A stretch of DNA of 64,000 nucleotides from the NCBI GenBank assembly GCA_973895155.1, contig OZ316899.1, forward strand, positions 8,001,241-8,065,240. The letters are read 5' to 3'. This document shows, piece by piece, positions 10,320 to 48,144 of this stretch (its first letter is position 1; every line of letters begins with the position of its first letter). The notes beneath the pieces are model-generated. The model was not told where the DNA came from, searched no databases, and was given only the letters and a program-made list of their open reading frames with translations. Made by a program: the position numbers and the translations under genes. The stretch comes from Marsupella aquatica. Its lineage: Eukaryota > Plantae > Marchantiophyta.

Positions 10320-12586
10320 TTATACGTAGTATTGCCCCATCAGATGCTTGTCAGATCCAGGCCGGGGACCAAGAACCTGATGTCGTTGCTCTCTGAAATG
10401 ACGGAGGAGGGCGGAAGCCTGCACAAGAACATGTATCCGGCGTCAGACGACAAAAATACTTCTAGCTGTTACACAACATCGGTAAGTAAAACGATCACAA
10501 GACGAAGAACAAATCGAAATTTGTTCTTCTCGGTTAATTGCTTCATGGACTGAGGACGGCAAAATACCGCTTTCGTCTCGACGCATGGAAGGATAACTTA
10601 ACCGCTTTTGGAAGAGTAAGCCAGGGGCCCCATTATGGAGCATAGCTTTCAAACAAATGTTACCTTCTCTTTCGCGCGTGCCGTGCCAGACTGAGACAGG
10701 GCAACTAGGGGAGGAATTGCTCCCTCTTGTAACACGAGGGCTCGATGTTTGTGGCTATTCATACATAATTGTAATAAGGCAGCTGCGGCATTCTCTTTGC
10801 CTCTTTGTGACCCAGCCTCAACAACCTCCACCAAAGCTGGTATTCCTCCTTCCTCCCCAACTGCAACCCTCCCTTCTGGTATAGTTGCAAGATTCGCTAG
10901 CACTGCCACTGCCTTGTCAACCATTCCAGCAGCAGGGTCGGCCATCAGCTCAACAAGAGGTTTAATAGCCCCAGCGCGAACAATACGGGCCTTGTTTTCG
11001 TGAAAGATTGACAAATTAAATAATGCTGTTGCTGCGTCCTTTTTCCCCCTCGGAGTTCCATTTATTAGCAGATGTACCAGAGGCGGTATTGCACCTGATG
11101 CCCCGATGGTTACTTTATTATCGTCCATCACAGATAAACTAAAGAGAGTGGCAGCGGCGTTTTCCATAGCCTGTACACTCCCTACATTGAGGACATTTAC
11201 AAGAGGGTCTATAGCACCAGCTGCAGCAATCTCGGACTTGTTATTATCATTGATTGATAAGTTCAGCAGCGCAGTCACAGCATTCTCTTGAGTTTTAAGA
11301 TCCGCAGACTTCAGTAATGCAACTAATGGTTTGATAGCACCTGAGTTGGCGATTAGGATACGATTCTCCATGTTGTACTTGGCGAGAAGCCTTAATTCTG
11401 CGGCCGCTTGCCTCTGGATATCGACAGCATCTGACTCGAGATCCAGGACCAACCCAGCAATTATCATCTGAGCATTGCCATGGTTCTCAAGAGTGTCTTG
11501 AATCGGGCTTAGGACGATTGTCGGCAAAGTTACTTCTCTCTCGTCTCCAAGCCGTCTCCACGAAGCACCTGCTGTCCTGTCTTGTGGACGAGACGGCGGT
11601 CCTGTTTCCTCTGTGAACCCAACAGTGGAAGCAATAGCAATAGACAGTCTCTCCATTTCACCGGGCACATCACTCTGGTATGGAGAAGAATCAAGAGGAG
11701 TGTGAATAATGTCACCTGCAGCACCGTCCTGTACTACGGAAGATCCCTGAGCATCATCCAAGCTTGAAGCTGCGCTTACACCCGAACTTGCACGATCGTC
11801 GTTGCTGAGAGAAGACGGTTCGTGGACAGAGTCAGCCAGGTATTTTTCTTTCTCTTTCAACAGTGAGATTCGCCGAAGATTTAATGCTCCTTCTACTTGA
11901 TACGTGATAGGATATCGACAGTCTGGCTGAGTTCCTCCTTGATCTTCTCCACCGTTTACACATACAATCCCATCGAGTTGTCCTTCATCGTTTGAAGTGT
12001 GCAACAAGGTGCGTCTTGATCTTGCCGGGGGACGACTCCCAACTCCGGACATGCTCCGTTCTTGATGACGTGGCTTGACTAAAACCAAAGGCTCCTGCAC
12101 CTGCCTGGCAGCAGAATCTATCCTGCGCTCTTCAAGATCAGTCTTCAAACTCGGTACGGGAGACGGTCTAAAGATGGTACTCAACCTATCAATCTTTGAC
12201 GGTTCCGGGAGAGGGACATTGTTAGCTTCACACCAACTGGCAATCAACGCTTTTACTGTGTAGTTCGGGATAAGATTGGTGTGCGTGAGAATTTGCCTTG
12301 TCTTGGGACAAGTCGTATTTCCTTGATCTAGCCATTGCTGAATATAAACTCGTTCATATGTTTGCCCCGACGCTACTATTACAGGATCAGACATCAGCTC
12401 CAAAGAAAGAGGGCATCGAAAGTCCGGTGGAATCTGTGAACCTAAAGGTCTCTGCTCCCCGGCCAATTCTACCATTGCTCCTGAGGAGAAAATTCCCTGA
12501 CCTACGTGTTCTTCGTCAAGATGCTCGTTGCCATCTGTTCTGCCATCATCCCTCTGACCATCTGCATCGTACTTCTCGGCCTCCAT
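10320..12586 (-). CDS. Plant U-box/ARM-repeat E3 ubiquitin ligase (PUB2/3/4-like); exons 12586-10664 and 10418-10320; 673 aa
   Basis: U-box (IPPDFRCPLSLELMSDPVIVASGQTYER..LIPNYTVKALIASW) and ARM repeats (QENAVTALLNLS, GKKDAATALFNLS, GKENAAAALLQL). Phase-0 GT-AG intron 10419-10663 adds ASALLRHFREQRH...YYV*. An in-frame TAG lies directly before the ATG. Probable 5'UTR intron acceptor at 12606-12607. Confidence 0.93.
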
Positions 12587-13567: not shown

Positions 13568-13726
13568 TAATATGGATTAATCATAGACATTCAATACACC
13601 AGCAAGCTCACTTCCTTCATTGCATTGTGGGAGTGGAAATCTCTCCCTATGTAGTACATGGTATGGCGGTTATGTAACCTCCTATGTTCTAGGGTAAGTA
13701 GGGTTAGGGTTTTTTCCCTTATAACA
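13568..13726 (-). repeat. 3' LTR of the copia element
   Basis: Direct repeat of 19606-19764. Begins TGTTATAA on the minus strand after the purine tract AAGGGGGAG and ends in TA. Confidence 0.95.
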
Positions 13727-14575
13727 CTCCCCCTTGGTTGAATGAAAAATATTTCAAACAACCATAAAAGTATGGGGAAAAACTAACCCTTGTAATGATA
13801 TGTCTATTATTTGGCCAAAGTGTAGTATGGTCTCATTAAAACCATGCTTCAATCATGGGAAGAGTGCCACTACTATTACATGGTCTAAGGCCAAAAATGA
13901 AATATATCAAAGAATTATAACGATAAGTAGTTTGTATCTGTAAAAGTAAATCTAAGTTCTATTGACTATTGAGTGTAAGGCTAAGTGTAAAAAAAAGTTT
14001 ACAGAATAGGTATGCATTCGATAGTCTCCTTCGTGAGCTGAAGCTTGAACTTCGAGGTAATCGATGGGAACGGGAAATCGGAGATTGCTCTGTGATCAGA
14101 TGTTGCTGCGCGGCAGTGCTGAGGTAGAATGTGGATGGCTATTGAGTCAAGAAGTTGAGTCGAGAAGTGGCGATTGAGTCGTTGTTGGGGTCGACTGCTG
14201 CTACTTCCGTTGTTCGCGGTTGTGCGCCCAGGGTCCTGGAGTTTGGCGTCGTCCTGCGCTTGGTTTGTTCGGTGCAATAACTCGGTCATAATCAATAAAG
14301 CTCGGACAGTAAGAAGATGTTGCGCTTATGTGTGATTAAGTGCGAAAATGAGTTGGTTGCTAGTTGACGTCTATCTCTCTCGATTCTTGATTTGTAGATA
14401 TATCCTGAGCTCGGCTCTGTTATTCAGCTTGCGGATGAGCATAAGTCGAATGTCGAGTGACAGAATGGTAGTAGAGTATATCGCTGGTTATCTATAGATA
14501 TTCGAAACTGTAGCCTGTGTGTAAGAAATGTTGAGATATTCATGAATGCGCTGCATCAATAATGTCAGTTCCGAT

Positions 14576-17500
14576 TTATCTATCGATGCCCTGCAGCAGT
14601 GAGGTCATGCTTCTCATGCCTATACCATATGTATGTTCTCTGTGGAGAGATGATGGTAGTGGTTTCGTAAATAAATCTGCTCGATTTTCCTTGCTAGGAA
14701 TCCACTGTACATTGACCTGTCCGCCGTGCTGCTCATGTGTATAAAAGAATTTAGGTGCTATATGTTTAATACGATCGCCTTTGATAAAACCCTGCACTAT
14801 CTGATCGACACAGGGTCGATTATCTTCATAGATAATCGTAGGTTTATCCAAACGAGAGTTCCCTGTGTGTGTATGAATATGATCCATCAAGTTTCTTAAC
14901 CAAATGCATTCCCTAGTGGCTTCGTAGAGGGCAATGATTTCCGCGTGGTTGGACGAAGTAGCTGTCAATGTTTGTTTGCAGCTTCTCCAGGAGATAGCAG
15001 TACCTCCTTGAAGAAAAACATATCCCGTCTGGGATTTTGCATCGTCAGGGTCTGAAAGGTATCCTACGTCTGCATATCCCACCAATAGATTTTCTGACTG
15101 CTTGGGAAAGAATAGTCCCAGGTCTGTGGTTCCTCGCAGGTAACGGAATACTCGCTTTACGCCATTCCAGTGACGAATAGTGGGTTTGGCACTATGGCGT
15201 GCAAGAAGATTGACTGCAAAAGAGATATCAGGACGGGACTGTGTAGCCAGGTACATGAGAGCCCCGATTGCTGAGAGGTAAGGCTTTTCTGGGCCAAGAA
15301 TGGCTTCTGGTGCAGTCCATTTCCTGAATGTATCCTTTGCAGGATCTGAGGATCTCAAATCCATAGGAGTGCTAACAGGGTAAGCAGTCTCCATGTTAAA
15401 CTATTTTAATACTTTCTCAGTATAGGTAGATTGAGTAATGAGTATGCCATGATGCAAGTGATTAAACTGTAAGCCCAAGCAATAGGTGGGTTTACCTATG
15501 TCCCGCATCTCGAATATCTTCTTCAGGATGTCTATTGTATCAGCTGTAATTTTTGCTGTGCCAAAAATATTGATGTCGTCAACATAAATTGCTATAATGA
15601 CGAATTCATTTCCGTCCTGTTTGAGAAATAGGCAAGGGGCAATATCGTCAGTAATAAAATTCAGTGCAATCATTTCAGCTTTGAAGTGTTTATACCAGGT
15701 CCGCCCACTCTGTTTTAAACCATATAGAGAGCGAAGTACTTGAACTGCAAGTTCTCTTTTAACTTTCTTTGTTTGTGTAACAGGGGTAACCTGTGAGGAA
15801 GACATTCGTTTCCTCTGAGCGGATGTGTGTAGCACATCTTGTGTGGTTGGGACTAAAGGTCCAGTCTCAGTCGTCACTGAAGTCAAATTGCCTGTAGGAC
15901 AAGTTTGCTGTACTCCAGGTTGTAGACCTGGGCTTAGTTTACCGGTTTTCTCCCCCTCAATGTGAAACGTCAATCGCTTGATGAGTTCGGGGGGTGCCTT
16001 CATATAAATTTTGGTATCAAGGATACCATATAGATAGGCAGTAATCACATCTAAAATATGCATTACTAGTTTGTGGATAAGAGCATATGCAATAAGATAT
16101 CTATATGTGATGGAATCCATGACAGGAGAGTATGTTTGATCAAAGTCCCGGCCGGGGATCTGGGTATAGCCCTTCGCGACTAGGCGCGCTTTATGTCTGA
16201 TAACTTCTCCTTTCGCATTTCGTTTTCTAACAAAAATAAATCTGTATCCTGTAAGATGAAGTCCGGCAGGTGCAGGAATGATGGGCCCAAAAACTTTTCG
16301 TCTGATTAGGGAGTCCAATTCTGAATTGATAGCTAGCTCCCATTGTGGCCAATCCGGGCGAGTTCGGGCCTCAGCAATGGTTAGGGGATCAGGAGTTGTA
16401 TTGATAATGTCCTCGGAAATCTGGAATGCAAAGATATCATCAATTCGGATTGTATCACGCTGCATTATCTTCCCGGTATGTACGTAATTAATTGTGATCT
16501 CCTCATTATCGGCTGGTCCTTGTGAAGATGGTTCTATGGTTGGTGTAATGGTGGGAGATGGACGAGCTACACTCGTGCGGGACTGTCTTGGATGAGAGTC
16601 CTTGGATCCCAGTGGGCGTCCTCTTTTGGCCTTGGGTGCAGCGCGAGTGGCTGGTGTAGGCTGCCAAGAAATTTGAGCTGGTATGTTGGCTGCTTCGATG
16701 TGTGAGCGAGTGACAGTGGCTGCATCGTTGAATGCATCAGGAAGTTTCATAAGCATCTGTTGTAAGTGGAGAACACGTTGTACTTCCAGATCTGTTTCTT
16801 TAGTTTGGTGGTCCTCTGTAAGCAGGCGAGGAGACAACCATTGTAAGTCTTTCACTGGTACATCGCCATTTCTCTTGGGATCTTCTGTAAGGGTTGGAAA
16901 ATCGTCTTCAAAGAAATGGCAGTCTTGGAACCGTGCTTTAAAAACATCTGCTGTGGAAGGTTCCAAATATCTTATAATAGAGCGTGAGTCAAAGCCCACA
17001 TAGATACCGCGCTGTCTTTGAGGTCCCATTTTAGTTCTCTTGGGACCTAAAATTGGGACAAGTACCAGGCAGCCAAAAATTCGTAGATGTGTGATGTCTG
17101 GTGGTAATCCATATGCTAGAAAATGTGGGGTCTGTGTATTAAATGAGGACGGTCTCAGTCGAATAAGGGCAGCTGCATGCAGGACCGCATGGCCCCAAGC
17201 TGATGCTGGTAAATTGGACTGCATCAGGAGAGGTCTGGCCACCATCTGTATTCGTTTGATTATGGATTCTGCAAGACCATTCTGAAAGTGAACATGTGGA
17301 ACCGGATATTCTGTATTGATACCTGCAGTTTCACAGAAGGTATCGAAAGTTTGGAGGTAAATTCCCCCGCGTTATCAACTCTAATGGTTTTGATGGGATT
17401 CTCTGGGAATTGGTATTTTAATTTCAATATGTGCGATAATATTCGTGGGAAGACCAAGTTACGGGTAGAGAGCAGGGAGACCTGTGACCACTTAGTAGAG

Positions 17501-19256
17501 GCATCAATGATAACTAGGAAATATCGGAATGGGCCAGAAGGAGGGTCAATGGGGCCACAGACATCAGCATGTATTCTCTCCAAAAATTGTGGTATCTGAT
17601 GTATTGTCTTGGATGGTGAGGGACGGGTAACCATTTTTCCTTGTGAGCATGCGAGGCAGGGTTTGCTGGTAGCAGATGGGTGAACGCCTTTAGGTATGCC
17701 CACGGTAGCCTTAAGTATATTGTGGTACATACTTGTACCAGGATGTCCAAGGCGATTATGCCATATTTGTGTTAAAGTCAGTGAAGTACTTGTAGCATGA
17801 TATGAATAGATTCGGGTGATGTAGAGTCCTGGGGGATATATGGGGAGTATCTCTCGCACTAATCTCCCTGATGTGGTATTTTCCAGGATATGTAGGACCT
17901 CACGGTTGCCACATGTCTCTGTATGAATGTGGAATTTATTGGCGCGTATATCACTGAAACTTATCAGGTTTCGAGTAGCCCACGGAGCATAAATGGCGGA
18001 GTCTATGTGGAGAATTGTACCCTTGGGGAATCTGACTTGTGCTGGACCATAACCTTCCTCTATATGATTAGGTCCAGTTATGGTTGTCATGGATCTGTGG
18101 GATGGAGTGATACGTAGGAAATAATCTTTATGGCGTAGGATGGAATGAGATGTGCTGCTATCGACAATACAGTTGTGATGATCGTCGAGCATAGAGGGAT
18201 TAGCTCCTAATTGGGCAGTATGTACTTCTGGTGCATATCCCTCAATATCATCTGTAGTTTCCATATAGTTTCCATGGGCTTCATTACTAGGTAATTCCAT
18301 GCTTTGTTTATAAAGTTGGACCAGGTGGGCAGGAGATCGGCAATTTTTCTGTAGGTGACCCTTTGTGCCGCACCTGAAACATTCAGTCAGATTTTCGTTC
18401 TCTCTGGTCCAACTATTAGGTCCTCGGCCACGGCCTCCGCTACGGCCTCTGCCTCTGTATCCATTACCTCGTCCACGTTGTCCTCTTCCTCGATAAAAAT
18501 GTCCAGAAGATTGATATTCCAAATTATGGAATTGTCCATAGCCTCTGCCCCTTTGTTGGTTTCTGCCTCTGATAAATGGTCGTTGTCCTCTCCCCCTGAA
18601 TGTGCCACGTCCTCTGCCTCGGATCTTATCATTTTGTCTGTTGAAATTGATTTCAGGTTTGGGTGGTGGAGCGGCTGTACCTGGTGGGCGAGATTTTGCA
18701 TTTTCCAGTAGGAGTATTTGGTGCTTCTCAGCAAGAAGCATATGAGCAATTAGCTCGGAATATTTTGTAAAACCCATGTTTCGGTATTGGGATGCAAGGA
18801 TGAGATTTCCGGCACTGAACGTTGATAGGGTTCTTTCAATCTGCTCGGCGTCATTAACTGTGGGTGGCCACAGATTGCGAGTTGAGAGGTGATGCGAAAA
18901 AGTTCTCCGTTGTAGTTTGATATAGAAGTGTGGTCCTGTACACGCAAATTTATCCAGTCGTGGCGTGCGGCCGGCAGAGAGACTAGGCTCATGTGATCGA
19001 ACCGTGATTTGAGATCTTCCCAAAGAATTCGGGGGTTGTATTGATTGAGATATTGACTCTTGAGTGGCTCTGCAAGGTGGTGGCGTATGAAGATTAATGC
19101 TCTCGCCTTTTGCTGTAATGTTAGGCCTGCATCGGTTAAAATAGTGTCCTGTAGGTCTTTTGAGTAAAGATATGCTTCGACATCAAGTGACCAGGATAAA
19201 TAATTGGCACCATCAATAGTTAGAGCCTTAAATTGAAGCTTCTCTATCGAATTCAT
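14576..19256 (-). pseudogene. Copia gag-pol polyprotein (two frameshifts and one in-frame stop)
   Basis: Gag (NYLSWSLDVE), zinc knuckle CFRCGTKGHLQKNC, protease IVDSSTSHS, integrase WHNRLGHPG/HADVCGP/IRVDNAGEF, RT KARLVAKGY/SLYGLKQSGR/YVDD, RNase H KHIAPKF/ADLFTK. Frameshifts near 18860 and 17340; TAG at 15401-15403. Confidence 0.93.
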
Positions 19257-19590
19257 GGTGATGGAAGTTATGATGATAGGATCTCAAATCGAGTTATATC
19301 AAGCGATTTGTGAGTTATGCTCTGCCTGAATTCTTTAAATCAGTTGTGGCATTGAGGTCTAAGAAATTCAAATGGAAAGAAAACGGTGAAGAAGAAACTT
19401 CCTCGTATTGATCAAAGAGCAAATTTCAATGTGGGTATTCGGTGTTCAGATGTCAGCGCTCCTGATCCTTCAAAGTGTCGTTTGAGAAAAAAAAATTGAT
19501 CCTTGGTTCAATCAATAATTCGAAATGTGCATATCGGTTCACTGAATCGATTGCTTAAGGAAAAATCAAGAATTGTGCTCCAAGGATAGA

Positions 19591-19605
19591 GTCGTGCTGA
19601 TAACG
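19591..19605 (-). promoter_or_regulatory. Primer-binding site, half-tRNA type (tRNA-Ile-like)
   Basis: CGTTATCAGCACGAC directly follows the 5' LTR. It is complementary to the anticodon arm of plant tRNA-Ile (GTCGTGCTAATAACG, recalled) with one A>G difference. Confidence 0.7.
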
Positions 19606-19764
19606 TAATATGGATTAATCATAGACATTCAATACACCAGCAAGCTCACTTCCTTCATTGCATTGTGGGAGTGGAAATCTCTCCCTATGTAGTACATGGT
19701 ATGGCGGTTATGTAACCTCCTATGTTCTAGGGTAAGTAGGGTTAGGGTTTTTTCCCTTATAATA
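19606..19764 (-). repeat. 5' LTR of the copia element
   Basis: Matches 13568-13726 except for the second base on the minus strand (TA instead of TG). Confidence 0.95.
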
Positions 19765-21140: not shown

Positions 21141-24100
21141 ACAAAAATAATTGTGTTGAGGAGTGCAAAAGAAGTGGAGGGGAGAAAAGATGGAGAGATA
21201 TGCTTAGTAGAACCCCTTCTGGAAAAAAGTTTGCTTAATCAACCCCCTCAATACTTTTCCCCAATCTGGATCGTTGATGGACCTTACAATCTCAGATTTG
21301 GATCATTGATAGACCTCAGGAGGTCGATCAAGTAACAAGTTTCATTTTGGGGGTCGACCAAGCAAATACCTTGAAGAGATGTGGAGGTGATTAAAGATGT
21401 CCAGGCAAGAAAATGATGTTGAGATTAGGAAAAGATGTCAAAAATATATTGTGATAAGGGAGATAGGTGAGGACAACATAAACATGCACATTTATTCAAC
21501 CCTAGGTGGAGGGTGGCCACCCCCCTCCTCCTCATTGCCTCCTCTCCCCCTTTCTCTTGGGCTGCATCTCCCCTTCTTCCCCTCTTCCACCCTCCCCCTT
21601 CCCCCCCTAAAAACAAACCCCAATGAAAGGCAAGGGTGTCCCTTTTTTCCTCCTTTTCTCCTCTTATTGCCTTATTATTATTATCTTTATTCTCACCTTC
21701 CTTTGCTCCACTTTGTCTCAATCCCTATCTTGTACTTATGGGAGGGTATGATACAGACTCTTCATCCCTTCGCCCATGGTTGTATCATTACGTCCCCTCG
21801 CTATTTTGACCTTTATGTCTCCTAGTCCCTAGATCCCCTCATAATGGTGTCCCAAGTGCCCAGTTCCAATGGCAACACATGGCATTCACATAAAGGGTAT
21901 GCCATCATGCCCATTCTTAGAGATATTTGTGCATACCAAAATATTTTGTCTTGCTTGGGTTAGAGATATTGATTTGACAAATGAAAGGCTAGGATAAAAG
22001 GACCTATAAATCCAAGGGTCATGGAATCTTCCCTCCAAAAATGATTTTGTAAATGGACCACATCCACTTTTGGTGGGATAGGGTATTATATAGTAGTAGG
22101 ATGATGATAACACAAGTTTTAATCATCATTTTCTAGTTGGCTGCAATAAAATGTAGGATGCTGGGCTCCTGACCAATTACAGAGTTTGTCCCAGATTTTT
22201 GCAATCCTCACAGTTCCCAATAAGCAGGATAGGGCACTACTGTAGCTAGCGACCCAAAGGCCACTATATTAGAGGCATGTACTTACCCAGAGTCATGAAA
22301 CAAAATGTTGAAAAATTATAATCTCAATTAAAAATACTCTATTGGAGGAGAAACTTCATTATGCCTATTTCCGGTTGTAACCGTAGCTGTATTTGTGTTC
22401 CTAGGGTCAAGTTCCAGAGGTCTCACACGAGACAACAAGTGCTTATCCTAACCTTTGGATCTTGCTTTGTTTGATATAGTTGTGTATTTATTTTTAACTT
22501 TGAATGCACATTTTATTGTGGGGAAAAACCCAAAGAGTTGGAAACATTTGTATATATATATCGGTCTCAAATGCATTTTTATTGTCCAGTGTGACCCAAA
22601 TAGATGGAAACATTTATTTATTTTGTCTGGAATGTATTATTTTCTTTCCCAGTAGAGCTCAGACATCAAAGCCTAGATGGACTTGGACATTGTCTCTCAC
22701 AACTCCCACATATAGGAGGATTAAGGTAGCTAGGGTTTCCAGAGGGGTGACCATATACCTTGTAAAGCACATATGGGAAGCCTTATTTGCACCATCAGGA
22801 CAGGTGTACATTTATTGGGGGACTACATCTCCAACATCAATTTAATTCACTTACAATGAGGCTGAGGTATGATTAGAGAGTGTGAAAGCTCAGAATTTGA
22901 TGGACCTCAATTTGGTAGTTATGGGTTACAGAAACAAAAAGTTAAGGACAGGGTTATTGACTATCAATTCATAGTCTCACTACTACATATTTGCCAATTT
23001 TGCGAAGGCGTTTTACAAGAGGAAGAAAGCTTTGCAATATTAATCTCATCGCTAAACTTGCGATACGACACGCATCGCACTTAGCGAATCTATCCACATC
23101 GCAACACATAATTGCGAAACTCATACAATCGCAACATTTTACGACACTTCACGTATCGCAAAACATTTCCGAAGTAATTATCATTGAACAATTTAGCGAT
23201 CTTTACCGCTTCGCAAATTCATTGCGATGCGCCGGACAAATAAACAGTTGCGAATATTTTAGCATCTCAAAATGTTTTGCGAGTCTTATTGTCTCGCAAA
23301 TGAGCGATGTTTACGGAATGGCTAACTTGCGATAGTAATAGGCTCGTAAATCCTGTGCCTGTCTAGGGTCTCATTTTGTGAATGTTTTGGTTTTGCAACC
23401 TTGAGAGCATGGTATCTTCGGAAGTTTGCGATGAGTTCATGATGGCAATTAGCGAGCATTTCAATATCGCAAATTTAGCGATGAGTTTGCGGGGGTAGGG
23501 GTTTCGCAAGATGTTTCACAAAATATTATGAGCGCTTCAAAGAGGTGGAAAAGGAATGGGATTGGGGAGGGAGGGTAAAGGAGGGAGGATACATGTAATT
23601 TTTAGGGAGGGACAATGAAAAGGAGGAGAGGGACAAGGAACGGAGGGATCCAAGGGGGAGGATACAGGTTTAGGGGGCACAAGGAAATGAGGGAGGAGGA
23701 AGGGTATGTAGATATAGTTTTAGGGAGGGTTTGGATTTAGGGAGTGAAAATAAAAAGGAGGGAGTTTAGGGTTTAGAGAGGGACAAGGAAAGGAGGGAGG
23801 GTATTGGTTTAGAGAGGGACAAGGAAATGAGGGAGGTTTAAGGGTATAGGTTTAGGAGGGAGGAGAGAAGCTAGGTTGTATAGGTAAGAGTGGGGGATAG
23901 GGGTGGAAAGTAAGGAAAGTATAGGGTTGAAATAGAAAGGGGTTGGGACAAGGAGAGGAAGGAGGAAGGAGGGTTTAATAAGAGGGACAGACAATGAAAG
24001 AAAGGAGGAGGGAGGTGGGTACAAGTAATAAGGAGAACGGCTAGGGGGGGATTAGGAAAGCATGGAGGATAGAGGACTACAAGCAACATGAGTTTTCTTT

Positions 24101-24306
24101 GCATAAAGTCTACCAAAAGGTGTGGTGAGTGTGGGGTAGGGATGGGAGATATAGAAAACAACATTTGAAAATGATATACTTACAAAACATAAGTTTATTG
24201 ATAATTGAGAAGCACATATTTCTCCATTCTATCGAGAAGAGAAATCTTCATATCATCAAATCTAACTATATATCCGTGTAGCTATATATCCACAAACACA
24301 GAGCCC

Positions 24307-27300
24307 TCAAACTTGGTCCTCATCATCTTCAGGTTGGGACACAACCAGAATATCAGGCTTTTTCCCAACGATTGAACGAGACCGTGGCACATATGTGATG
24401 ACAAGTGACCATTCCTCTGGGTTTGGGGGGTATGGAATATAGAAACATTGTTCCACATGACTTGGAAAAGTGAACGGTTCTGATGTTTGCCAATGAGATG
24501 GCTGGAAACTAGTGGCAGACGTCTTCAGTCGTGTAAATCCACACTCATCTTGAACCACAGTAGGATTGTTACTTGCAAGGTTCACTTTGAACCACTTGCA
24601 CTTGAAGACATACTCTTCAAACTTTGATTGTGCATCATAAGATATCACTAGAATCTCTTCTACCTTTCCATAATATGGCACAACATCTTGAATAATATTT
24701 GTGTCATGGCAACTGTTGCGGGAATCTTGAGAGAATTGTCCTTGAACTCCACAATCAAAGGTACGACCCCTCTTCTCATCAAGGGAAGAAATCCTAAAAT
24801 CCATCAAACCATAAGGATATGTTACACAAAAATAGACACAAACATATTCCAATTAATGGAACACACCAAGAATCTGCCTCTTCAATATACGTGCTTGTAT
24901 TACAAATGAATTAAATTAAACCAAGTGATTCAAATCAAAGGTTACTAAGGTAGATGGAGATCACCTGAAATGTCTTCCTTGTGTCCACATTGTTGTCCTT
25001 GTTGTAACCACTCTCAAGGGACCATGAACAATGGTACGAACATCATCCGTGATAGCCCAAAAATGTAATACACTCTCTCCCCTGACCACCATGTCATCCA
25101 CCTCAACTAACTTCTCCTTCATATAGTCAAGGTACTTTGGAAAAATCCTTGGTCTTGTGCTGTTACTTTTGGCATCCTCATAGAAATCCCTCCATTCTTC
25201 CATGATAGTGCTGTTACTCAACATGAATGTGGTCAGTTGTTTCACCTCCACTGGTGTCAACATGCTAGTTTTCCTAGCACCTATTAAATGATCCTCTTCA
25301 TCTTCCCTCTCCTCTACCCAAGTACGGGGAGAGGTACAATCAATTGTGGCCAATATGTTACTACAATAGAACATACTCTCAGCTGCTAAGTATCTTGTAG
25401 CCATGCTTCCCTCAACCCATGCGCGGTTACGTACATAACCTTTTAACACTGCCATGTATCGTTCTAGCCAATACATCCACCGACAATGCACAGGACCTGC
25501 AATGGCCACCTCATGAACAAGATGAACAAGTAAATGCACTTGACAGTCAAAAAAGGAAGGAGGAAGGGCCTTCTCCAACTTGCATACCACCTCTGCTGCC
25601 AAAACCTCCATCCTAGGGATCTCGTCAGTATATATCTCCTTAGAGCATACCCATCTCAATAGTTTTCCCAATGACCAAAGGGCATCTTGCACTTCTTCAC
25701 TTGCCAAACCTATTATGGCCACAGGCAATATGTGCTGCAATAACCTATGGTAGTCATGTGTCTTGAGATACCTTGGCCACTTATGATTGTCCTCCATCCC
25801 AAAGGCCTTTCGGAGATTGGCACCATAACCAGTAGGAAACCGCATGTCTCCTATGCGATTCCAAAACTCCCTTCTCTGGCCAACAGGAAGCACCCATGGA
25901 GCTGAAGGTCGATGCTCGATCCCTGTGATAGGATCACTTATGACCCACACGTTTGGATGCATCTCAAGATCCTCACAAGCCTCCCTGAAGTTAGTGTCTT
26001 TCTCTCCATAGAAAGCCTTTATCAAAGCCTTTCCCACATTTCCCTCAATGTGCATGGGGTCTAATAGATGGCGAATCTTCAACTCACCCCAATAGGGCAA
26101 AGTGGTTAATATACTCTACCTTGTCAAGCCACTACCCTCAAATTGCATGGGATCCTCTGGGTCTGCCACTGTTGCAGCCATGTCTTTCTAGTGTGTAAAA
26201 GTTGTTGGCTCAGGTACATCACGCTCATCACCAAAGGGCATATCAATAGAGGAAAATAGTAGTGGGTCACGCCTCATCTGATGTCCCATTGGAAGAAACT
26301 TTGTATGCCCAAGATAAACAATCTTGCGAAGATGTGATGAATACTTGGCTACATCACCAAGGCTTGGGCCACAAGTGGAGCAAGCCTTGTAGCCTTGGGT
26401 TTGCAACCCACTCACAAAGCCAAATCCTGGTCATATAAACACACATTATGTTAGGATTAGCACATGGAAATGAGGGGATACCATGCATTAGAATATGATG
26501 CATTTAAACAACAAAGTTCTTACCTGGGTAGTCATGCATGGTCCACATACAAACCCCTTTCAGTTTGAAAACCTGTGGAGTACCCCCTGTAGTCTTTCAA
26601 CCATCATATGCCCATAATTTCTGGAGTTCCTGAACCAGTAATGTCAAATAGGTGTCCATGTTCTTCACCTTCTTTGGCCCTGGGATAATCAAAGATAGCA
26701 ACAAAAAACCCTTTTTCATGGACAACCATGGTGGAAGGTTGTAATTCATGAGAACCACAGGCCAGACCGATGTAGGTCTCCCCTTCCCTCCAAGTGAATG
26801 AGGGCTAACTCCATCTGATGCCAACCCCAATCGCACATGCCGAGGGTCACGCTCAAAATCTGGCCATGTTGATTCCACATGTTTATGAGCAGGAGAGTCA
26901 ACTGGTAATTGCATGACACCGGGCTCCGAACGATGTTTCTTGTGCCATACCATCAACTCGGCCAAGTCAGAACATCTATACATGTGCAACAAGCGAGGAA
27001 TTATGGGGAACCAATGAACTGCTTTCCTTGGTACCTTCTGGGTTAGCATGTTTGGCTCATACCGTGGCTCATGACACACTGTGCATTCTGTGATATGGGT
27101 TGTATCCCCGTGAAATAACATGCAATCATTCACACAGGCATGAATAATATGGTAATCCATGCCAATGGATGAGAGAACCTTCTTTGCATCCTTCCAAGTC
27201 CCTGGCAACACATTCTCTGAGGGTAACATCAAGTCATGACAATATTCAAATATGTCTGATAACATAGAATTGCTTGCCTTGTGTTTGGCTTGAATGTTCA

Positions 27301-27688
27301 AGAGCCCCAATATGGCAGAAAGACGGCTCAACTGAGCACCCTCAAAAATAGGTGTTTGAGCATGTTCCTCTGCCTCTTTCCATTGTTGTTGTCCCTCTGG
27401 AGTATGTTGTGGCCGTGGGTCATTTGAAGGGCCAGCCTCATGACCAATGTGAGGCACATCATCCTCAACATCGGCACCAAACCAATCAACCATGAAGTCA
27501 TCCATGGCTCTATCTTGATCATGCATAACCTGGTCATCAGTCCGAGGTGCGGCTTGCTCATCAGCACCACCTACATCATTACTTGATGAGGAATCACCCT
27601 CTGATGGTTGTCCCTCTTTTGGCATACCCATCTCCCGATATGTTGCTCTCAACCTTCGTGGTAACATTTGTTGAGATGGTTGCGCATT
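24307..27688 (-). pseudogene. CACTA TnpD/Tnp2-type transposase; exons 27688-26524, 26426-24965 and 24793-24307; probable first exon 29070-28846
   Basis: IHACVNDCMLF, RHVRLGLASDGVSP, YNLPPWL, IIPGPK, MHDYPG, LDPMHIEGN, LKTHDYH, HLLVHL, WMYWLERYM, YYGKVEEI, FKCKWF. GT-AG introns keep the frame. In-frame stops at 26597, 26188 and 26116. Confidence 0.92.
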
Positions 27689-27903
27689 CTATGCACATTA
27701 CAACCAAAAAACCTCCTCATGTATATTTGACCAAGTACAACAAATTAAAATAGACTTAACACCATTCATTCAAGACATTAAGAATTAAAGTAAATGCATG
27801 GGCTAAAACCTTATTACTCCAAAATGAGCCCAAAGGCCATATATATATATAATAGTAAATGGGAAGTCCAAAACAGGTGCAAGAGGATAAAGGACATGAT
27901 TTC

Positions 27904-28734
27904 CTAATCCCACTCATAGTGTGTGAATAACTCATCTCCTGCTCTAATGGTCCTAGTAGCAAGAACTAAGCAATGGTCCTTATGATATGTCGTGCCATAT
28001 GGTGCCGGCATTGGACCATCAGTAAAAACTCACTCACAATTGGCCCTACGCTTGGGCCGAGTCCCCACAGTACTATTTATGAAACCAGCAATATTCCCAT
28101 TACGTATGGGATCACCGTCTATCACCCGCTGCTCACTATACCTTCTAGTGCTACCATCAAAAGTATCCATCTCTAGAGCATATGTTTTCCACTCAGGATG
28201 TTGTGCAAGGATCATGTTTCAATGTCTTCTCTTGTAGATGGGTCCACCGTATGGGAACAAAGTAGGACCATCTCTACCACGAACACTTGACCCACCCTCC
28301 TCATCCATGATGATATCCTCACAAGCAAATACTCCATATCCATGTCTCTCTCCAAGTGTGGAAGTTTTCACAATCCAACGTCTACCCCAAACCACAATCT
28401 CCTCAACAAAATCTGTAAAATAAGGCAAGCCAAGAGTGATAGGTTCCCAATCCTTGATGATAGAGGCACACTTGCCAGTGAATGAACAAACACCCCACCT
28501 ATCCTGAACTAGTGTTCTGGATGGGTCATTGGGTGCTCGTGGCCTCCTGTTGGACTGGGGCCTGGACCGGGGTCTTCGTGTCTCAGTGGGCACATGAGGG
28601 TGTTCCCCTTCTGTCCCATGACTGGTACTGATTCCCAAACCCAAGGCTTGTGAAAGTGCATTGCCTATAGCATCTAAAACTCCTTGTGATGGGACATAGG
28701 GTGGTGGTGTCACCAATCTACGCATACTGGATCC
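27904..28734 (-). pseudogene. SET-domain (lysine methyltransferase-like) exon inside the CACTA element, with two in-frame TGA stops
   Basis: One frame reads WIVKTSTLGERHGYGVFACEDI..LFPYGGPIY..YALEM..IDGDPIRNGNIAGFINS..ANCE*VF..CLVLATRTIRAGDELFTHYEWD*. These match SET motifs GxGxFA, YxG, RFINH-like and RxIxxGEELxxxY. Phase-0 AG acceptor at 28735-28736. Confidence 0.8.
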
Positions 28735-28845
28735 CTATTCCATGCAAACACCCACAAACAACCAAATGTGTAAACCATATGTGTAAACATTGATTCACCT
28801 CTAAAGATAACAGTAAAGAACGACAATAAATTGAAACAAACTTAC

Positions 28846-29070
28846 CATGTGGGATGAAGAAGCCCCGGGAGTAAGACCTCTATGATGTCCATATCTCTCG
28901 ATATGTTGAGCACACACATAAGATTTTTGAGAAATTTGGCCCACACATCTAGTGCAGTCACAAAGTCTTCGGGGTGGACCACGAGGACCGGTAACCTCGG
29001 GCTGAGGAGGAGGGGGTATATCGTCATCGGAGGAGTACTCACTACTGGATAGTTCAGAGGAAGAGGACAT
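28846..29070 (-). CDS. First coding exon of the CACTA minus-strand unit (transposase-associated Cys/His domain-like)
   Basis: MSSSSELSS..RRLCDCTRC..VCAQHIERYG..SSHM followed by a phase-0 GTAAGT donor (GT at 28845-28844). CxCxxC..H..G resembles the CACTA transposase-associated domain. Confidence 0.65.
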
Positions 29071-29177
29071 ATCCACTGTCACATTACATTGCATGTAGGG
29101 CATGATTAGGAAAAATTAGGCCATATATAAAGCAATTTTCAAAAAAATGAACTAAAAAAACAATTAGGTTGGTTTAA

Positions 29178-30240
29178 ACATGGGGTTTTATTACCCTTTT
29201 ATATTTGTTAGCATGAAACCCAAATTAAGGTGAGTGTCATGCAAGAAGAAACCACATTATAACCTTTGGGAAAATTGTAATACCCTATGTCCTAAGTGAG
29301 GTTAGATTATTACCTGAATGAGACCCGGGCTCAACAGTGCCTATAGGTCATGTGGCTTTTGGAACATTTGCCAAATCTAGAAGTAGGAGGAAAATAATGG
29401 AAACAAAATGTAAGTTTGGATGGTAATTAGCAGCCGTCAAGTTGTGGAATCTTAGACATTTACCCATATATATCATGGCACAACAAAGAAGGGCAAGCAT
29501 AAAAATCTGTACTAACAACATTGACTGTATACATGATGTTATACCTTTTAGATGCTCGGGTTCCCACAATGCATATGCATTAGACAAAAGTTGAGGTAGT
29601 AGTGCTGGCCCTGCGTTGTATCATGATTACATGGGGTTTCCCCTCAATTGTTAGCATAAAACCCTAAACCCTTATCCCCCCTCGAGTGAAAGGTGAGTGT
29701 CATGCAATAAAAACCCACCCTAGATCCCTAGGAAAACTCTAAAGGCCTAAGCCCAGAATGAAGTTGGACAATTACCTGAATGAGATCAGCACCCAATAGT
29801 GCCTGTAGGTCGTGTGGCTCAATGAACATGAGCTGAATCTAGAAGCACGAGGAAAATACTGGAAACAAAAAGTAAGTTTGGATAGCCATTAGCTTCTCTC
29901 AAGTTGTAGACCCCCAAACATGTGCATATAGATATTCTTGCACAACAAAGAAGGGCAAGGTTTATGAACAATCTCTTTATCAAACCCTGCTAACATACAT
30001 GTTTAAATATACCTTTTAGATGTCCGGGTTCCCACAATGCATATGCATTAGACAAAAGTTGAGGAAGCAGTGATGGTCCTGCACTGGATCATGATTACAT
30101 GGGCTTTCCCTCAATTGTTAGCATAAAACCCAAAACCTCATCCCGCTTCAAGTGAAAGGTGAGTGTCATGCAATAAAAACCCACCATAGACCCTTGGGAA
30201 CTCTAAAAGCGTAAGCCAATGAAGTTAGCAAAAACCTAAA
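29178..30240. repeat. Tandem duplication of a ~450-470-bp unit (about 2.3 copies) between the divergent CACTA genes
   Basis: Units start ACATGGG at 29178, 29629 and 30097 and share AAGGTGAGTGTCATGCAA and CCCACAATGCATATGCATTAGACAAAAGTTGAGG. Confidence 0.9.
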
Positions 30241-30939
30241 TGGTCAATTCCCTTCAACCATCCTATGCTTCTCTCTACCATAATTATATGCCACCCCTCT
30301 TGGTTACCCTCCTAAGATACCATAAAAGTAACCCAAGATACTATAAAACTGAAACCTCTCTTTCAAACCCTCCTAAGTTGGCCTAAACCCCAAACCCAAA
30401 ACATAAAACCCCTCCTAGCTCTTACCCTCCAATACATATAACCCCAACCTTCATAAATAAAACCCCCTGCAAACCCAAAACATAAAACCCCTCGTATCTA
30501 AGCCAATCTAAGCCCAACCTTCACAAAAGAAACCCTCCCCTAACCAGGCCAAACCCCCTCCTCTTACCCTCCAATATAACTCCTTCAATTCTCTAACCCC
30601 CCGATCCTTATCTGATCACATCCCACTAAAATGCAACATAATCCTCTACTTCTACCCCATTTAATGTTCATAAGCCCCCTTAGTATCCCTAACAACACAT
30701 CAAATACGCATGCGAGACGGGGGTTATGGCAAAACCAAATAGCAAAGGCATTTGCGAATCCTGAAGCTTCGCAAAGATATCATTTGCGAAGCTTTTTGCG
30801 AAGGCAGATGCATCGCAAACTGCGATGCAAAACGAATCGCAAAGCCTAAAATTTTGAATCCTTATGGATTGCCGAGCGCGGACAAGGCGGATTCAGTTCA
30901 TTCAGGCCTGAGGAGAGCAACAAGGGCAAGGGCGGAGCG

Positions 30940-33044
30940 ATGGCGAGCGGAGAGGGGACTGGTGGTGATGGAGGAGCTTCTGGCAGCAGCGGAGGCAACC
31001 GAGGGGGGGGGAATCGATTGAAGGCGATTGTGGATGAGCATTTTTTGGTTGCACAGTTGAGTCAAATTGATTTCAGCAGTCCAGCAGGGCTGGCATCATT
31101 GAGTGCCCTTCTGGGCCAAGCCTTGCAAGCAGGTCTCACTGCAGGGCAAGCAGCAGTAGAGGAGGATGCAAGGAAGGCAGCAGAGCAGGCGGCTGCTGAG
31201 AGGAAGCGAAAGAGGGACGAGAGAGCTCAGGTTGGAGTGCTCTCGCCTCAAGCATTGGAAAAGAAGAGGAGGAAAGATGAGAGAGACCTGATCAGGAAAC
31301 AGAGGGAGGAGCAAAGAAAGAAGGAGGCAGCAAGGAGGAAGCTGCCTCTTATTACTTTAGAGGATGAGGGGATTCCCACCGAGCTTGCTTACAATGGGGC
31401 CAAGAGCACAATCAGGCACATTGTATCCACAAGTTTTGCAAGAGGAGTCGAGTGGGGCACTCGCTCAAAGGCAGAGCAAAAGCGAGTCATCAATCAGGTG
31501 AAAGATGCATTTCGAAATGGAGGAGAGATGGATTCACAGTGGCTTGCTGACAAAATTTCAAACTCCATGTCACAAGCTAGATACCATGATAGAATGAAGA
31601 TCAGGTCTCACCTTAGAGATTTGGAGGAGTATAGGAATTTGCAGAGGCCGCTGCAATTCTCAGAAGATATCTGGCAGGCCTTCTACCAGACAGAGGTGAA
31701 GTTGAAAGCAGCCAGGCTCCTCAATGATTTCACAGAGAAGCTGGCAAAGGTTCGAAGGGCAAAGGAGGCCGAGAAGTCTGACCGGGACCTGAAGGTGATG
31801 GAGCAGAAGGTAGCCCAGCTCCAACAGGTTGTAGCGGAAGTAGGCGATCCACCCAACAAGTTCCTGAAGGCAGTTGAGCGAGTCCGAGACAAGCCCAACA
31901 TCACCCACAGGCTGGGTCAAGGTGGCCTCCCCGGCCTCAAAGCAGCATTCGTGAGTGCACCTCCCTCTCCTCCCTTGACTTCTTGCTACTCCAATTCCTA
32001 TTCCAACACACCTGCAATGAGCCAACTCTTTCTTGCATTTCCACCAAGTAGTTACAATTAGACTTGTTGTGTCAGATTAGGTCACGTACAGTTGCTTCCC
32101 TCTCGGGTTTTTGCCATGACAGAGTTTGCGATGCATTTGCGATGCGCGTAGCTTCGCAAATCCTTTGCAAACCTTATTATGCCCTTTTTTTGCTTACATT
32201 TGCAAAGGCGTTGCGAAGACGTTCGTATCGCAACAAGCTTCGCAAACGTAATTGTCCTTATGATTGCGAAGCTGACACCTTCGCAAAATTTCAAAAATTT
32301 GAATTTTTAAATTTTCCGGTCGTTTAAGTGTTCTTTGAGGGTCTTCCCCATATATGCCACCCTCCATAAACCCAAAACCTTGATGCACCACCCCACCAGC
32401 CCCAACAAACCCCCTAATTTTTAGAAGCCATGTGAATCGGGTTATGGGTTGGTGTTAACCCAATTGTGCTGGTTTTGTTTTGGCTTAGTACAAGAGGTAC
32501 AAGAGGAAGATTACGGCGGCTGAGATGGAGGTGGGCCAGAAACATGGGAAGGAGCATCTCTTTCAGCAAGTTGATGAATTACTGGTAAGCATTTTTAGGT
32601 TATTACATTCATTGCAATTTTGAATGAATATCTCTTTTGTTCACACTTGTAAAGAATATGAGACTAACAGACACCTTGGTTTGCTAATGGAAGCAGGGAG
32701 GGGAGGATGGTGACTCCCATACCGAGGGTGGCACCAATAGTAGTGATGAGGATGTGGAGGGGACAGGGGAGGGGAGCACAACTCTTGCTACTCAAGCCAG
32801 GCCAACTAGCACTGGAGACCAGTCATTTGTATCAGCACGTTCCAGTGGTGTTGGGGGTGGTAGCGCGGCAAGCCAGGGCGGTGGAGGTGGGGATGAGGAT
32901 GAGGATGAGGAGGAGGAGGAGGGTGACCCCGAGGGTGACCAAGAGGAGGAGGAAGTCCAGGTTGCACCCCCCCCAAGAGCACGCAAGGGCAGGGAGAAGG
33001 CCAAGGGGAAGAAGGCAAGGAGGGGCACGAACACTCCTTTCTAG
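30940..33044 (+). CDS. CACTA TnpA/Ptta-like accessory protein; exons 30940-31950, 32489-32584 and 32697-33044; 484 aa, frame intact
   Basis: Phase-0 GT-AG introns join one open frame: coiled coil, VEWGTRSKAEQKRVINQVKDAF, RPLQFSEDIWQAF, HRLGQGG, then an acidic tail and a basic C-terminus. The pattern resembles the Transposase_24/TnpA family. Confidence 0.7.
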
Positions 33045-33920
33045 CTCTATGTAGACAGGTTGTAGCTAGAGCACTTACATTGAGTTCACATGTATAGCGA
33101 TCAGCATGCATGGCCGTGGCGCTTTACCTAAGGGTTTTTACCCTTCCATTTTGTAACTTTTGTACTTTTTCAGTAATGCCATTTTAATTGCGGCAGACTG
33201 GGTCAACATCACTTTCCTCCCTCCTTCAAAACCCATGAATGGTCTCCCTCACCCACACCCTAACCCAAATACACAAAAACCCATAAAAAAATACATTTTG
33301 CAAAGCTTTTGAGAACCAACCCCATCTCAAAGAGCTACGGCGAACGTATCGCAACAATTCCGAGAACAAAAGCATCGCAAAGCTTGCAATGTTGTCTACA
33401 TCACAACCCTAGCGAAGACTACCTCTCCGCACGTTTGCGAGTTAAATGCCTTTGCAACAAAGTGGTCATCCAATTTTCACAATCTTGCGAGTTAGTTTGC
33501 AGCGCAAGTTATAGAGAAATTCAACATCGGAAATTGCGATGTAAATGTTATCGCAACACGAGCGATCCATTTGTTCTCGCAAAATAATGAAATTGGTCGT
33601 TTCTCAATATTTGCAAGGATAATGCCGTCGCAACGTTGCGGAGATGTTGTGACGTATTTAGAATTGCAAGTTGCGAAGTAGTTGTGAAGGGCCGTTTGCG
33701 AAGGATTTAAGATGGGAAGTAGCAAAGACGTTGCGATGCGAGTAAGTTGGCAAAGTGGGTATTTCAGATTTTGTTTCCTTTGTATGATGCGAAGGGTGGC
33801 GGTTCGCAAAAGAGGTGCATAGTGTTGTAGTGTCTATAACTTTTTCCATAAAGATAGGTCAGAGGGGGGTAATCCATCAGTTATTAGTCACTGATATCAG
33901 TGGCCCCCCTTTTTTTTGCA

Positions 33921-43492: not shown

Positions 43493-43808
43493 TGTGACGC
43501 CGATGACATGGTCCTTATTCTATAATCTGAGTAAGTAGGTTGCTGTATGCAAGGAGTAGCTATTGATATTGCATAATAATTAGCAAGATGGCAAGAATAA
43601 GGGCAATCATGGCGTTGAGTAGGGAAATAAAAGCTATGTCACGGGTGGTCGGCGACCATATCTCTTTCAATATGTCACCAAATCTGGATCTATAAAGAGC
43701 ATTGGAAAGATCTGGTCAAGGCGAGTAAAATCGATATAAAACACTCTCAAAACATAGGTGTATTAGGAAAGATATGATCTATTAGTGCGACGGGTTAGTG
43801 TGTAACCC

Positions 43809-44170
43809 GGGATAGCGGATAGCGGATAGCGGATAGCGGATATGGATAGAGGTTAGCGGACACGGATAGTGGATATGGATAGAGGTTAGCGGACAGGATA
43901 ACGGATACGGATAGAGGTTAGCGGACACGGATAGTGGATAGCGAATAGAGGTTAGCGGATACAGATACCGGATAGTGGCTAGTGGCTAGCGGATTTAGAA
44001 TGGGGTTAGACTAAACCCGGGACAACGGATAGCAGACAACGGACACGGACAACCGACACGGACAATGGATAGCGGACAACGGACACGGACAACGAACACG
44101 AACAACGGACACGGACAACTAACAAAGACAACGGACACGGATAGCGGACACGAACACGGATAGCGGCTTA
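43809..44170 (+). repeat. Compound GGATAGC / GGACAC / GGACAAC tandem repeat in the 5' LTR
   Basis: Read directly; 6-7-bp units beginning GGA. Confidence 0.9.
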
Positions 44171-46628: not shown

Positions 46629-47060
46629 GGGATAGCGGATAGCGGATACGGATAGAGGTTAGCGGACACGGATAGCGGATACGGATAGAGGTTAGCGGAC
46701 ATGGATAGCGGATACGAATAGAGGTTAGCGGACATGGATAGCGGATAGCGGATAGAGGTTAGCGGATACAGATACCGGATAGTGGCTAGTGGCTAGCGGA
46801 TTTAGATTGGGGTTAGACTAAACCCGGGACAACGGATAGCGGACAACGGACGCAGACAACGGACACGGACAATGGATAGCGGACAACGGACATGGACAAT
46901 GGATAGCGGACAACGGACACGGACAACGGACACGGATAGTATACAGCAGGCACAGATAGCGGACACGGATAACGGACACGGACAACGAACACGGACAACG
47001 GACACGGACAACTGACAAAGACAACGGACATGGATAGCGGACACGGATACGGATACCGGC
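46629..47060 (+). repeat. The same compound repeat in the 3' LTR, with a different copy number
   Basis: Read directly. It accounts for spurious Cys/Pro-rich ORFs at 46550-47185. Confidence 0.9.
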
Positions 47061-48144
47061 TTAGCCCGAGGCCACGGGTTAACTCTTCTAAGGTCAGATA
47101 GGATAGCTAGGCTAGCCGAACTTGGGTTAGCTATGTAACTCGGGTTAGCGTAGCAATGAGTACCCCCTCTCGGTTGCGGGGGCATAACTTTCTGTGTATT
47201 TGGCCAAATCGGCTATAATTGACCTCGTTGGAAAGAGGAGCTCAAGCCGCTTCCAACGCTGCTATCCATGCAGAAAATGGTTGAATAGAGAAATCGGGAG
47301 AGGAGGCGCAAGCTTGCAAAAACCATGGAGGAGGGCCAAATCCGAAGTACATAGCCAATTCAAGATAAAAATAAAGTTGCGAGTTAGGGTTCAGTAGTTA
47401 GAGATAGTGGCGGCTCTGTTAGGGCTGGGATGGGGCTCCAGCAGCGTAGTATCCATCCATTTGGGCTCAGTATGAGAGTATATAGAGCAGCCCCCCAGTA
47501 GAGGCAGGGGGGACTTCAGTTGTGTGATCTCACTTAGACTGAGCAGCAGGGAGGAGCTCTGTGCAAGCAAGGCTGGACTTGGACACTGCATGTTGGGGAG
47601 AGCTTGGTTGTGCTATTACTCTGGGAGTAATCAGCCAAGCTTCACAACTGCAACGGTTGCTAGGTTTGCGAGCTGGATTGTGGCTCTTTCTAGTGGGCAG
47701 CACAACTGGGTTCTTTTCCCCCGATACAGAGCCTTGGTGATAGGTGATGTATTGGTGATTGTAAACTGTGGGGAGGATGTCAATTTGATTTGTGGTGAGC
47801 ACATTAGGGAGGCTGAGATACTGATTGAGGGGCAGCAGAAGGAGCATTTACAGTTTGGTCTAGCAAGGCTACGTGATCCATGGGGAGTCCCGGCCTTTGT
47901 CTGGTAGAGAGCACTAAGGGATTTATGGCCAGAGCTGAGCTTGCAAGGCAAGCATGAGGCCGGGCCTCATTGCAGTCTGGGGTAGATCGCCGTTAGGCCT
48001 GGTACCAACTTTGAAGTCGAGTCAACTATGCATGCGTAACTTGACGTTCTGAATTGGAGGTGTGAGATCTGTATGTGCCCCCAAGAATGAAGTGCAGTGA
48101 AGGAGGTTGAGTTCAGGATTGAGTTTGCAAGGCAAGTACGGGAT

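Follow-up and report, generated by a model that had tools for sequence, protein, structure and literature searches.

In maize En/Spm and in the Arabidopsis elements EN/SPM3 and EN/SPM7, the proteins TnpA and TnpD are produced by alternative splicing (PMC2613891, PMC13547354, PMC1636069), and the relevant sections of these papers bear out the premise of an initial annotation of the present DNA that elements of this type make different proteins in this way. The maize tnpD RNA is described as a dicistronic read-through (PMC1636069). Spm regulators are reported to arise by alternative splicing and domain partitioning, and Spm TnpA and the VANC proteins of VANDAL elements are described there as sequence-specific DNA-binding anti-silencing proteins (10.64898/2026.08.24.746577). 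SET domains have also been found on transposons. In red algae, the accessory gene PAG2 of Plavaka, which belongs to the EnSpm/CACTA superfamily, has a SET domain and is proposed to be a transcription modulator (10.1101/2025.02.11.637652), and SET genes are cited on HarbingerS, on oomycete MuDR families, and on Helitrons (PMC12730594, 10.1101/2025.02.11.637652). In the literature covered, no report was found of a tested activity for the transposon-borne SET proteins of oomycetes or red algae. The present study suggests that a CACTA element of land plants brings SET and transposase together in a single transcription unit. Specifically, the window (the whole 64,000-nt stretch of DNA that was analyzed) contains a broken copy of an element whose intact copies probably splice one first coding exon either to a SET exon or to TnpD, giving two proteins with a common Cys/His N-terminus.

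The element is complete and spans 10.9 kb, from 22978 to 33832. Its termini read CACTAC, its TIRs open with CACTA, and it is flanked on both sides by TCT, the 3-bp target-site duplication of CACTA/EnSpm elements (Table 1). Subterminal TCGCA motifs number 15 and 10 in the two terminal 500-bp bins, against 0.41 per bin outside the element. TCGCA clusters of eight motifs each also lie internally, at the start of the second gene (30740–30850) and in its first intron (32120–32290), and are possible self-regulation sites. All 15 long related loci have a CACTACAA terminus beyond the second gene, with varied flanks, and the element therefore belongs to a mobile family. The copy in the window is dead, a point that the initial annotation overlooked, with two premature stops in the SET exon and three in TnpD. 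Between its two divergent genes lies a gap of 1,869 nt, compared with ~690–960 nt in related loci; a 462-bp tandem duplication (78% identical; 29227–30242) sits there and duplicates the predicted leader donor. The second gene occupies the place where a TnpA-like or ORF2 accessory gene would be expected and is ~62–76% conserved in related loci. Its helical product matched no family and no fold, the model being of low confidence (pLDDT 55). Elsewhere in the window, a Copia-type LTR retrotransposon (13568–19762) is probably young, because its terminal repeats are identical over 157 nt; it adjoins a U-box/ARM gene (10649–12586). The intervals 43493–48144 and 59187–63755 hold a direct repeat of 1.8 kb (92%), which contains tandem units of 13 nt, and a Gypsy-type pol ORF 1,002 codons long.

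Table 1. Positions in the window of the element's termini, exons, introns, and splice sites
Feature	Position	Strand	Remarks
Left target-site duplication TCT	22975..22977	.	flank sequence
Left TIR CACTACTACA	22978..22987	+	followed by TCGCA-type subterminal motif cluster, ~23000-23500
TnpD last exon (DUF4216)	24307..24793	-	stop at 24309-24307
TnpD exon with C(2)C, DPMH, and H(3)H motifs, DUF4218	24965..26426	-	premature stops at 26190 and 26118
TnpD body exon (Transposase_21, ASDG motif)	26524..27688	-	premature stop at 26599
Distal acceptor TGCATAG	27689..27695	-	phase 0
AT-rich gap, SET stop to TnpD exon	27689..27903	-	215 nt; no donor-like GT
SET exon	27904..28734	-	276 codons plus stop; SET domain in last 145 codons
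Intron, GTAAGT donor to proximal acceptor GGAATAG	28735..28845	-	111 nt; phase 0
First coding exon	28846..29075	-	ATG at 29070; Ser/acidic/Pro stretch, then CxCxxC-G...Q...H motif
Predicted 5' UTR intron	29076..29313	-	CAG/GTA donor at 29313, ACAG acceptor at 29076
Second element gene, divergent	30940..33044	+	first exon 30940-31950; later exons approximate
Right TIR CACTACAACA	33823..33832	-	preceded by subterminal motifs, ~33300-33800
Right target-site duplication TCT	33833..33835	.	flank sequence

The common exon proposed in the initial annotation, 29070–28846, is borne out as 225 nt, or 75 codons, in phase 0 followed by a GTAAGT donor, and so is its Cys/His motif (C-D-C-T-R-C...H-I-E-R-Y-G). 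It is the first coding exon rather than the first exon as had been claimed, a conserved noncoding leader exon being predicted upstream: in 36 of the 45 loci that have the motif, the ATG is preceded by an acceptor AG at a distance of 5 nt, and in both the window (29313) and the commonest variant among the loci (25 matches) a CAG/GTA leader donor stands equally far from a conserved block. Sixty-three metagenome loci were fetched, and in only 47 did the match to exon 1 reach the last codon; the donor is GT in all 47 and GTAAGT in 42. Relatives of exon 1 with as little as 36–46% identity still end in ASSS-x-x-V, whose terminal V is what read-through of the donor GT gives. Residues C37, C39, C42, G44, Q48, and H56 are invariant across 28 exon 1 sequences, and dN/dS for the exon is 0.08–0.16 (Nei–Gojobori, window versus nine loci).

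The initial annotation had also equated this Cys/His exon with the domain that usually opens TnpD. PF13963 is the N-terminal domain of flowering-plant TnpD. In a Pfam search it was matched by four of the 28 exon 1 relatives, below the cut-off (E 0.025–0.14, at most 15.2 bits against 27.7; profile positions 31–63), and the window's own exon gave no match; five of the 28, close sequences, matched the unrelated family KAAG1 in the same scan. PF13963 co-occurs with Transposase_21 in an Atlas cluster (14% of members). An Atlas search with exon 1 gave matches of at most 0.81 throughout, and no full-length transposase was present among the 44 and 15 matches to exon 1 in searches that favor short proteins; one of the 15, P0087, was set aside as an unrelated repeat protein. 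A complex prediction for exon 1 and the TnpD body scored 0.00 and gave no answer either way. Collectively, the equation of exon 1 with the usual N-terminal domain of TnpD is weakly suggested by sequence.

Named relatives of the element belong to Sphagnum species, Calypogeia fissa, and Riccia sorocarpa. Exon 1 of the window shares 79–81% identity with three models from Calypogeia, 65% with a fourth one, and 67% with Sphagnum, by which the host would probably be a bryophyte and possibly a liverwort. The SET exon belongs to a cluster of 360 members from at least five named Sphagnum species, many copies of which look intact. Queries from the element found no match in the viral and prokaryote sequence collections. 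If the host of the window is a liverwort, a transfer of the element between mosses and liverworts is suggested. Among the metagenome loci is a Sphagnum-like family, two members of which were checked and are 86–89% identical to Sphagnum proteins. In comparisons of the element with these Sphagnum-like loci, synonymous sites are unsaturated (dS ~0.5–1.4) and intron 1 aligns in part.

Downstream of the common donor, AG 28736–28735 joins exon 1 in phase 0 and opens the SET frame, which closes at TAG 27906–27904, as proposed. Of 32 loci, 28 have AG at this proximal acceptor and four have AA. The SET exon does have its own stop at 27904, as the initial annotation stated, whereas its frame is broken in this copy by premature TGA codons at 28221–28219 and 28032–28030. 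In four sequencing runs aligned with the window, essentially all of the depth at 28219 and 28030 is C. The stops are private to this copy, because other copies read TGG at both. The Met that opens the exon is not constant (P0002, P0061, P0105). Judged by substitution rates, the exon is under purifying selection (core dN/dS 0.25–0.30; Nei–Gojobori, window versus eight loci). CACTA elements are known to capture gene fragments, and this copy is broken, so that the exon might be read as a fragment of a host gene carried along as an unused passenger. We consider this extremely improbable: the dN/dS is that of a constrained sequence and the exon is intact in other copies, it sits at the same position in several families, it has the large cluster of relatives just described, and there was no ordinary host SET gene among its 46 matches. 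Difference at fourfold sites is lowest in the SET exon (0.33–0.40), compared with 0.48–0.55 in exon 1, 0.42–0.49 in the TnpD body exon, and 0.49–0.51 in the second gene (window versus L017, L030, L035, L041, L046, L050, and L055); splicing signals within the exon or exchange between families may underlie this.

By Pfam, the window exon, read with X at each TGA, contains a SET domain (PF00856, E 1.3e-5; 25.9 bits against a cut-off of 22.4), and SET is the one domain found in this exon and in the full-length models P0001 and P0002. The fold was modeled with AlphaFold2 on the intact Sphagnum protein P0001 rather than on the window copy (mean pLDDT 65, with the SET core mostly at 70–95 and exon 1 poorly modeled). 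Foldseek returned 172 matches at E ≤ 0.001, SET throughout among the matches listed, with MLL1 at E 5e-6, and the model aligned with SET8 over 123 residues (VIA; Z 9.5, rmsd 3.0). The top VIA ranks are tied among SET8, COMPASS, PRC2, SET7/9, and NSD2, and therefore neither subfamily nor substrate can be read from the fold. In a tree of SET sequences the window falls in no supported clade. Distant SET relatives (P0039–P0046; 36–58% identity) include one from Riccia sorocarpa and several with longer C-terminal tails; a weak search of 1,694 candidates for longer SET relatives found none.

Most of the SET motifs are in place: with fragments counted, GxG of motif I is present in 41 of 46 SET sequences, YxG of motif II in 43, and ELxxxY of motif IV in 36. 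The Asn of motif III is kept, and His is never found there (Ser in 33 of 40 matches). Twenty-six of 36 members stop three residues past the motif IV Tyr, and none of the 46 relatives has a post-SET CxC after motif IV. Because the motif III His and the post-SET tail are missing, activity of the SET protein as a methyltransferase is likely but uncertain. Splicing might thus operate as proposed while the SET protein is something other than an active histone methyltransferase, binding histone tails or a partner, or methylating a nonhistone substrate (the transposase or a silencing factor, for example). The missing residues and the tied fold matches would fit this version, which we regard as distinctly improbable given the retention of motifs I and II, the motif III Asn, and the motif IV Tyr. 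Moreover, by alignment the solved bacterial SET enzyme LegAS4 likewise lacks the motif III His, and LegAS4 acts on histone H3. An H3 peptide is contained in the structure entry 8swi.

The second acceptor of the initial annotation holds equally: AG 27690–27689 joins exon 1 in phase 0 and opens the TnpD frame, which runs for 363 codons without a stop. That the exons downstream encode TnpD is supported by matches to PF02992 (E 2.7e-31), DUF4218, and DUF4216, with CSTC as the C(2)C motif and HLLVH as the H(3)H motif; no solved structure matches the TnpD exon by sequence. Two in-frame AGs are within chance expectation (1/3 each) and become meaningful because they are conserved. The distal acceptor is a phase 0 AG in all nine loci that reach the transposase exon, and homology in these loci begins at or next to the first codon past it. 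Eight of them were anchored on the distal acceptor, L017 being excluded for a 3-nt deletion. In seven of the eight the last seven intron nucleotides, AG included, are identical to those of the window, whereas only 18–20 of the 53 nt upstream of these seven match. The body exon begins N-A-Q-P-S-Q-Q-M, the Met corresponding to an ATG at 27667; over the 21 nt from acceptor to ATG (18 nt in one case) 11–13 positions match the window, second codon positions best of all (4–6 of 7). In sequencing run X5, a loose end shared by eight contigs at 27676 (agreement 0.78) carries, on the minus strand, a T-tract, CCATAG, and the codons N-K-W-P at the same offset. The acceptor is thus common to three lineages, with pre-Met residues N-A-Q-P-S in the window, N-I-R-P-S in the Sphagnum-like loci, and N-K-W-P in X5, and nothing else argues as strongly that splicing from a coding exon farther upstream leads into TnpD. 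The nine loci represent one Sphagnum-like family, so that the lineages that can be counted as independent are only about three. One locus, L050, carries a stop among the seven pre-Met codons, and dN/dS is 0.23–0.32 over TnpD codons 1–25 and, against two loci, 0.11–0.12 over the body (Nei–Gojobori).

There is, however, a second way to read this boundary. The ATG at 27667 is present in the window and in nine of nine loci and is kept as well as the acceptor, so that what the two messages share could be a leader alone: the donor at 29313 would be spliced either to the Cys/His exon, for the SET protein, or directly to the acceptor at 27689, in which case TnpD translation would begin at ATG 27667. 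The Cys/His domain would then be confined to the SET protein. A weaker form of this explanation places a transposase promoter inside the 215-nt gap, where TATA-like runs occur in the window and in the loci. The conserved 5' UTR donor exists, and a shared leader would account equally well for conservation of the distal acceptor. It would also suit the gene models: of 74 proteins that bear exon 1, 31, from Sphagnum species and Calypogeia fissa and all predictions, splice it to SET, 40 run into the intron, three do otherwise, and none joins it directly to TnpD, in a setting where predictors give one model per locus. Nevertheless, the 21 nt before the ATG look like codons, with an N-x-x-P-S pattern in three lineages, the best conservation at second positions, and a sole indel of 3 nt, and a shared leader would leave TnpD without the domain whose likeness to the transposase-associated PF13963 was seen in exon 1. 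We therefore hold sharing of the leader alone to be unlikely.

A donor within the SET exon could in principle join a partial SET domain to the TnpD body, creating a SET–transposase fusion in the manner of SETMAR. Two Sphagnum models, P0021 and P0108, leave the SET exon at a phase 1 GTGAGT, and the same hexamer occurs at 28037 in the window and in three of four loci checked. This hexamer, however, is dictated by the N-C-E-W codons and is missing in L030, its phase 1 does not fit the conserved phase 0 acceptor, and the two models enter TnpD at different acceptors; their SET–TnpD joins are read as artifacts of an internal phase 1 donor. A fusion would also lose motif IV, where conservation continues as far as a stop that is itself conserved, and the weak search for longer SET relatives described above gave it no support. 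Thus, a fusion of this kind appears very improbable. Nor was a relative without the SET exon recognized: L063 (3243–3656), a candidate for one, is an internal deletion derivative in which the middle of exon 1 is joined to the end of the third TnpD exon. Contigs of runs X1–X5 cover the introns, and skips near introns in them, considered as traces of splicing, fit diverged genomic copies instead, as judged from the best 15 of 107 and the best 15 of 16 contig joints.

The introns around the donor and both acceptors diverge, and the phase of the splice sites is kept across families. The shared N-terminus envisaged in the initial annotation therefore finds support in the phase conservation of all three sites and none in the 74 predicted proteins as regards the join of exon 1 to TnpD. 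Of the readings considered, splicing of exon 1 to either SET or TnpD in intact copies is the one we favor as probable. Under this model, one promoter between the divergent genes would yield a pre-mRNA with the noncoding leader and the Cys/His exon. Use of the near acceptor, across the 111-nt intron, would give a SET mRNA and a protein of 351 residues, while use of the far acceptor would excise the SET exon as part of a 1,157-nt intron, leading to a transposase mRNA and a protein of ~1,112 residues, both lengths being predicted as exon sums. The near acceptor would probably be dominant and hold the transposase low, as TnpA does in maize. The gap would serve as SET 3' UTR, as the 3' end of the long intron, or as both. 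A check for poly(A) sites there, called for in the initial annotation, came out negative for a conserved signal, with three hexamer variants in the window and none in four of four loci, so that the SET message may end in the gap or continue through the TnpD exons as a dicistronic RNA, two outcomes that we rate about even.

What the SET protein might do is more speculative and has less support. It would methylate lysines, with histones on copies of the element itself as the most likely substrate, thereby offsetting silencing, a role inferred by analogy with VANC and TnpA, and the common Cys/His domain might help to bring it to those copies. A broader picture, in which the element writes its own histone marks through a minimal SET isoform delivered by the Cys/His domain, the choice of splice site sets the ratio of writer to transposase, and the cassette has moved intact between mosses and liverworts, is offered tentatively, as a possibility on the doubtful side. 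The known plant anti-silencing factors VANC and TnpA are DNA-binding regulators, and marks written by a transposon would be something different. The Sphagnum copies make it testable whether a transposon writes histone marks on itself and whether splice choice couples this to transposase dose. In addition, a short SET domain without the His or the post-SET tail is of structural interest, and hundreds of Sphagnum "SET domain-containing" models appear to be parts of transposons, which affects gene-family counts.

No literature description of a bryophyte CACTA element with a SET exon was found in the sources covered, whose scope stops short of Repbase, subscription journals, and the supplements of two preprints (335 and 962 EnSpm proteins). 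The main text of 10.64898/2026.08.24.746577 makes no mention of SET or bryophytes, and PMC4158355 and PMC11982613 contributed nothing about this element. What appears to be new is the combination of a SET exon nested in a canonical land-plant CACTA transposase gene with a common coding exon. As described in the sources cited above, En/Spm shares with the present element the CACTA termini, the 3-bp duplication, the subterminal repeats, and Transposase_21, as well as a noncoding leader and two proteins, here predicted, from one transcription unit. The nesting differs: maize tnpA carries the transposase ORFs in its intron 1, whereas here it is the transposase gene that carries the accessory SET exon in an intron. 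Unlike En/Spm, the element has a coding exon common to both predicted products and a further, divergently transcribed gene, which stands head to head with the transposase gene, while in the split Arabidopsis families the arrangement is head to tail (PMC13547354). The accessory product also has an enzyme fold here, in contrast to the DNA-binding protein of En/Spm. PAG2 of Plavaka likewise places a SET domain on a member of the superfamily, but is described as a separate gene combining an N6-adenine methylase with SET in elements of 17–19 kb (10.1101/2025.02.11.637652), whereas here Pfam finds SET alone, inside a land-plant transposase gene. HarbingerS, the oomycete MuDR families, and Helitrons likewise bear SET genes on transposons; these belong to other superfamilies and hosts and are cited as accessory genes rather than splice isoforms of a transposase. 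Finally, the predicted SET protein would, by analogy, join VANC and TnpA as a regulator that an element encodes for its own chromatin; those proteins bind DNA, and this one would be an enzyme that writes marks.
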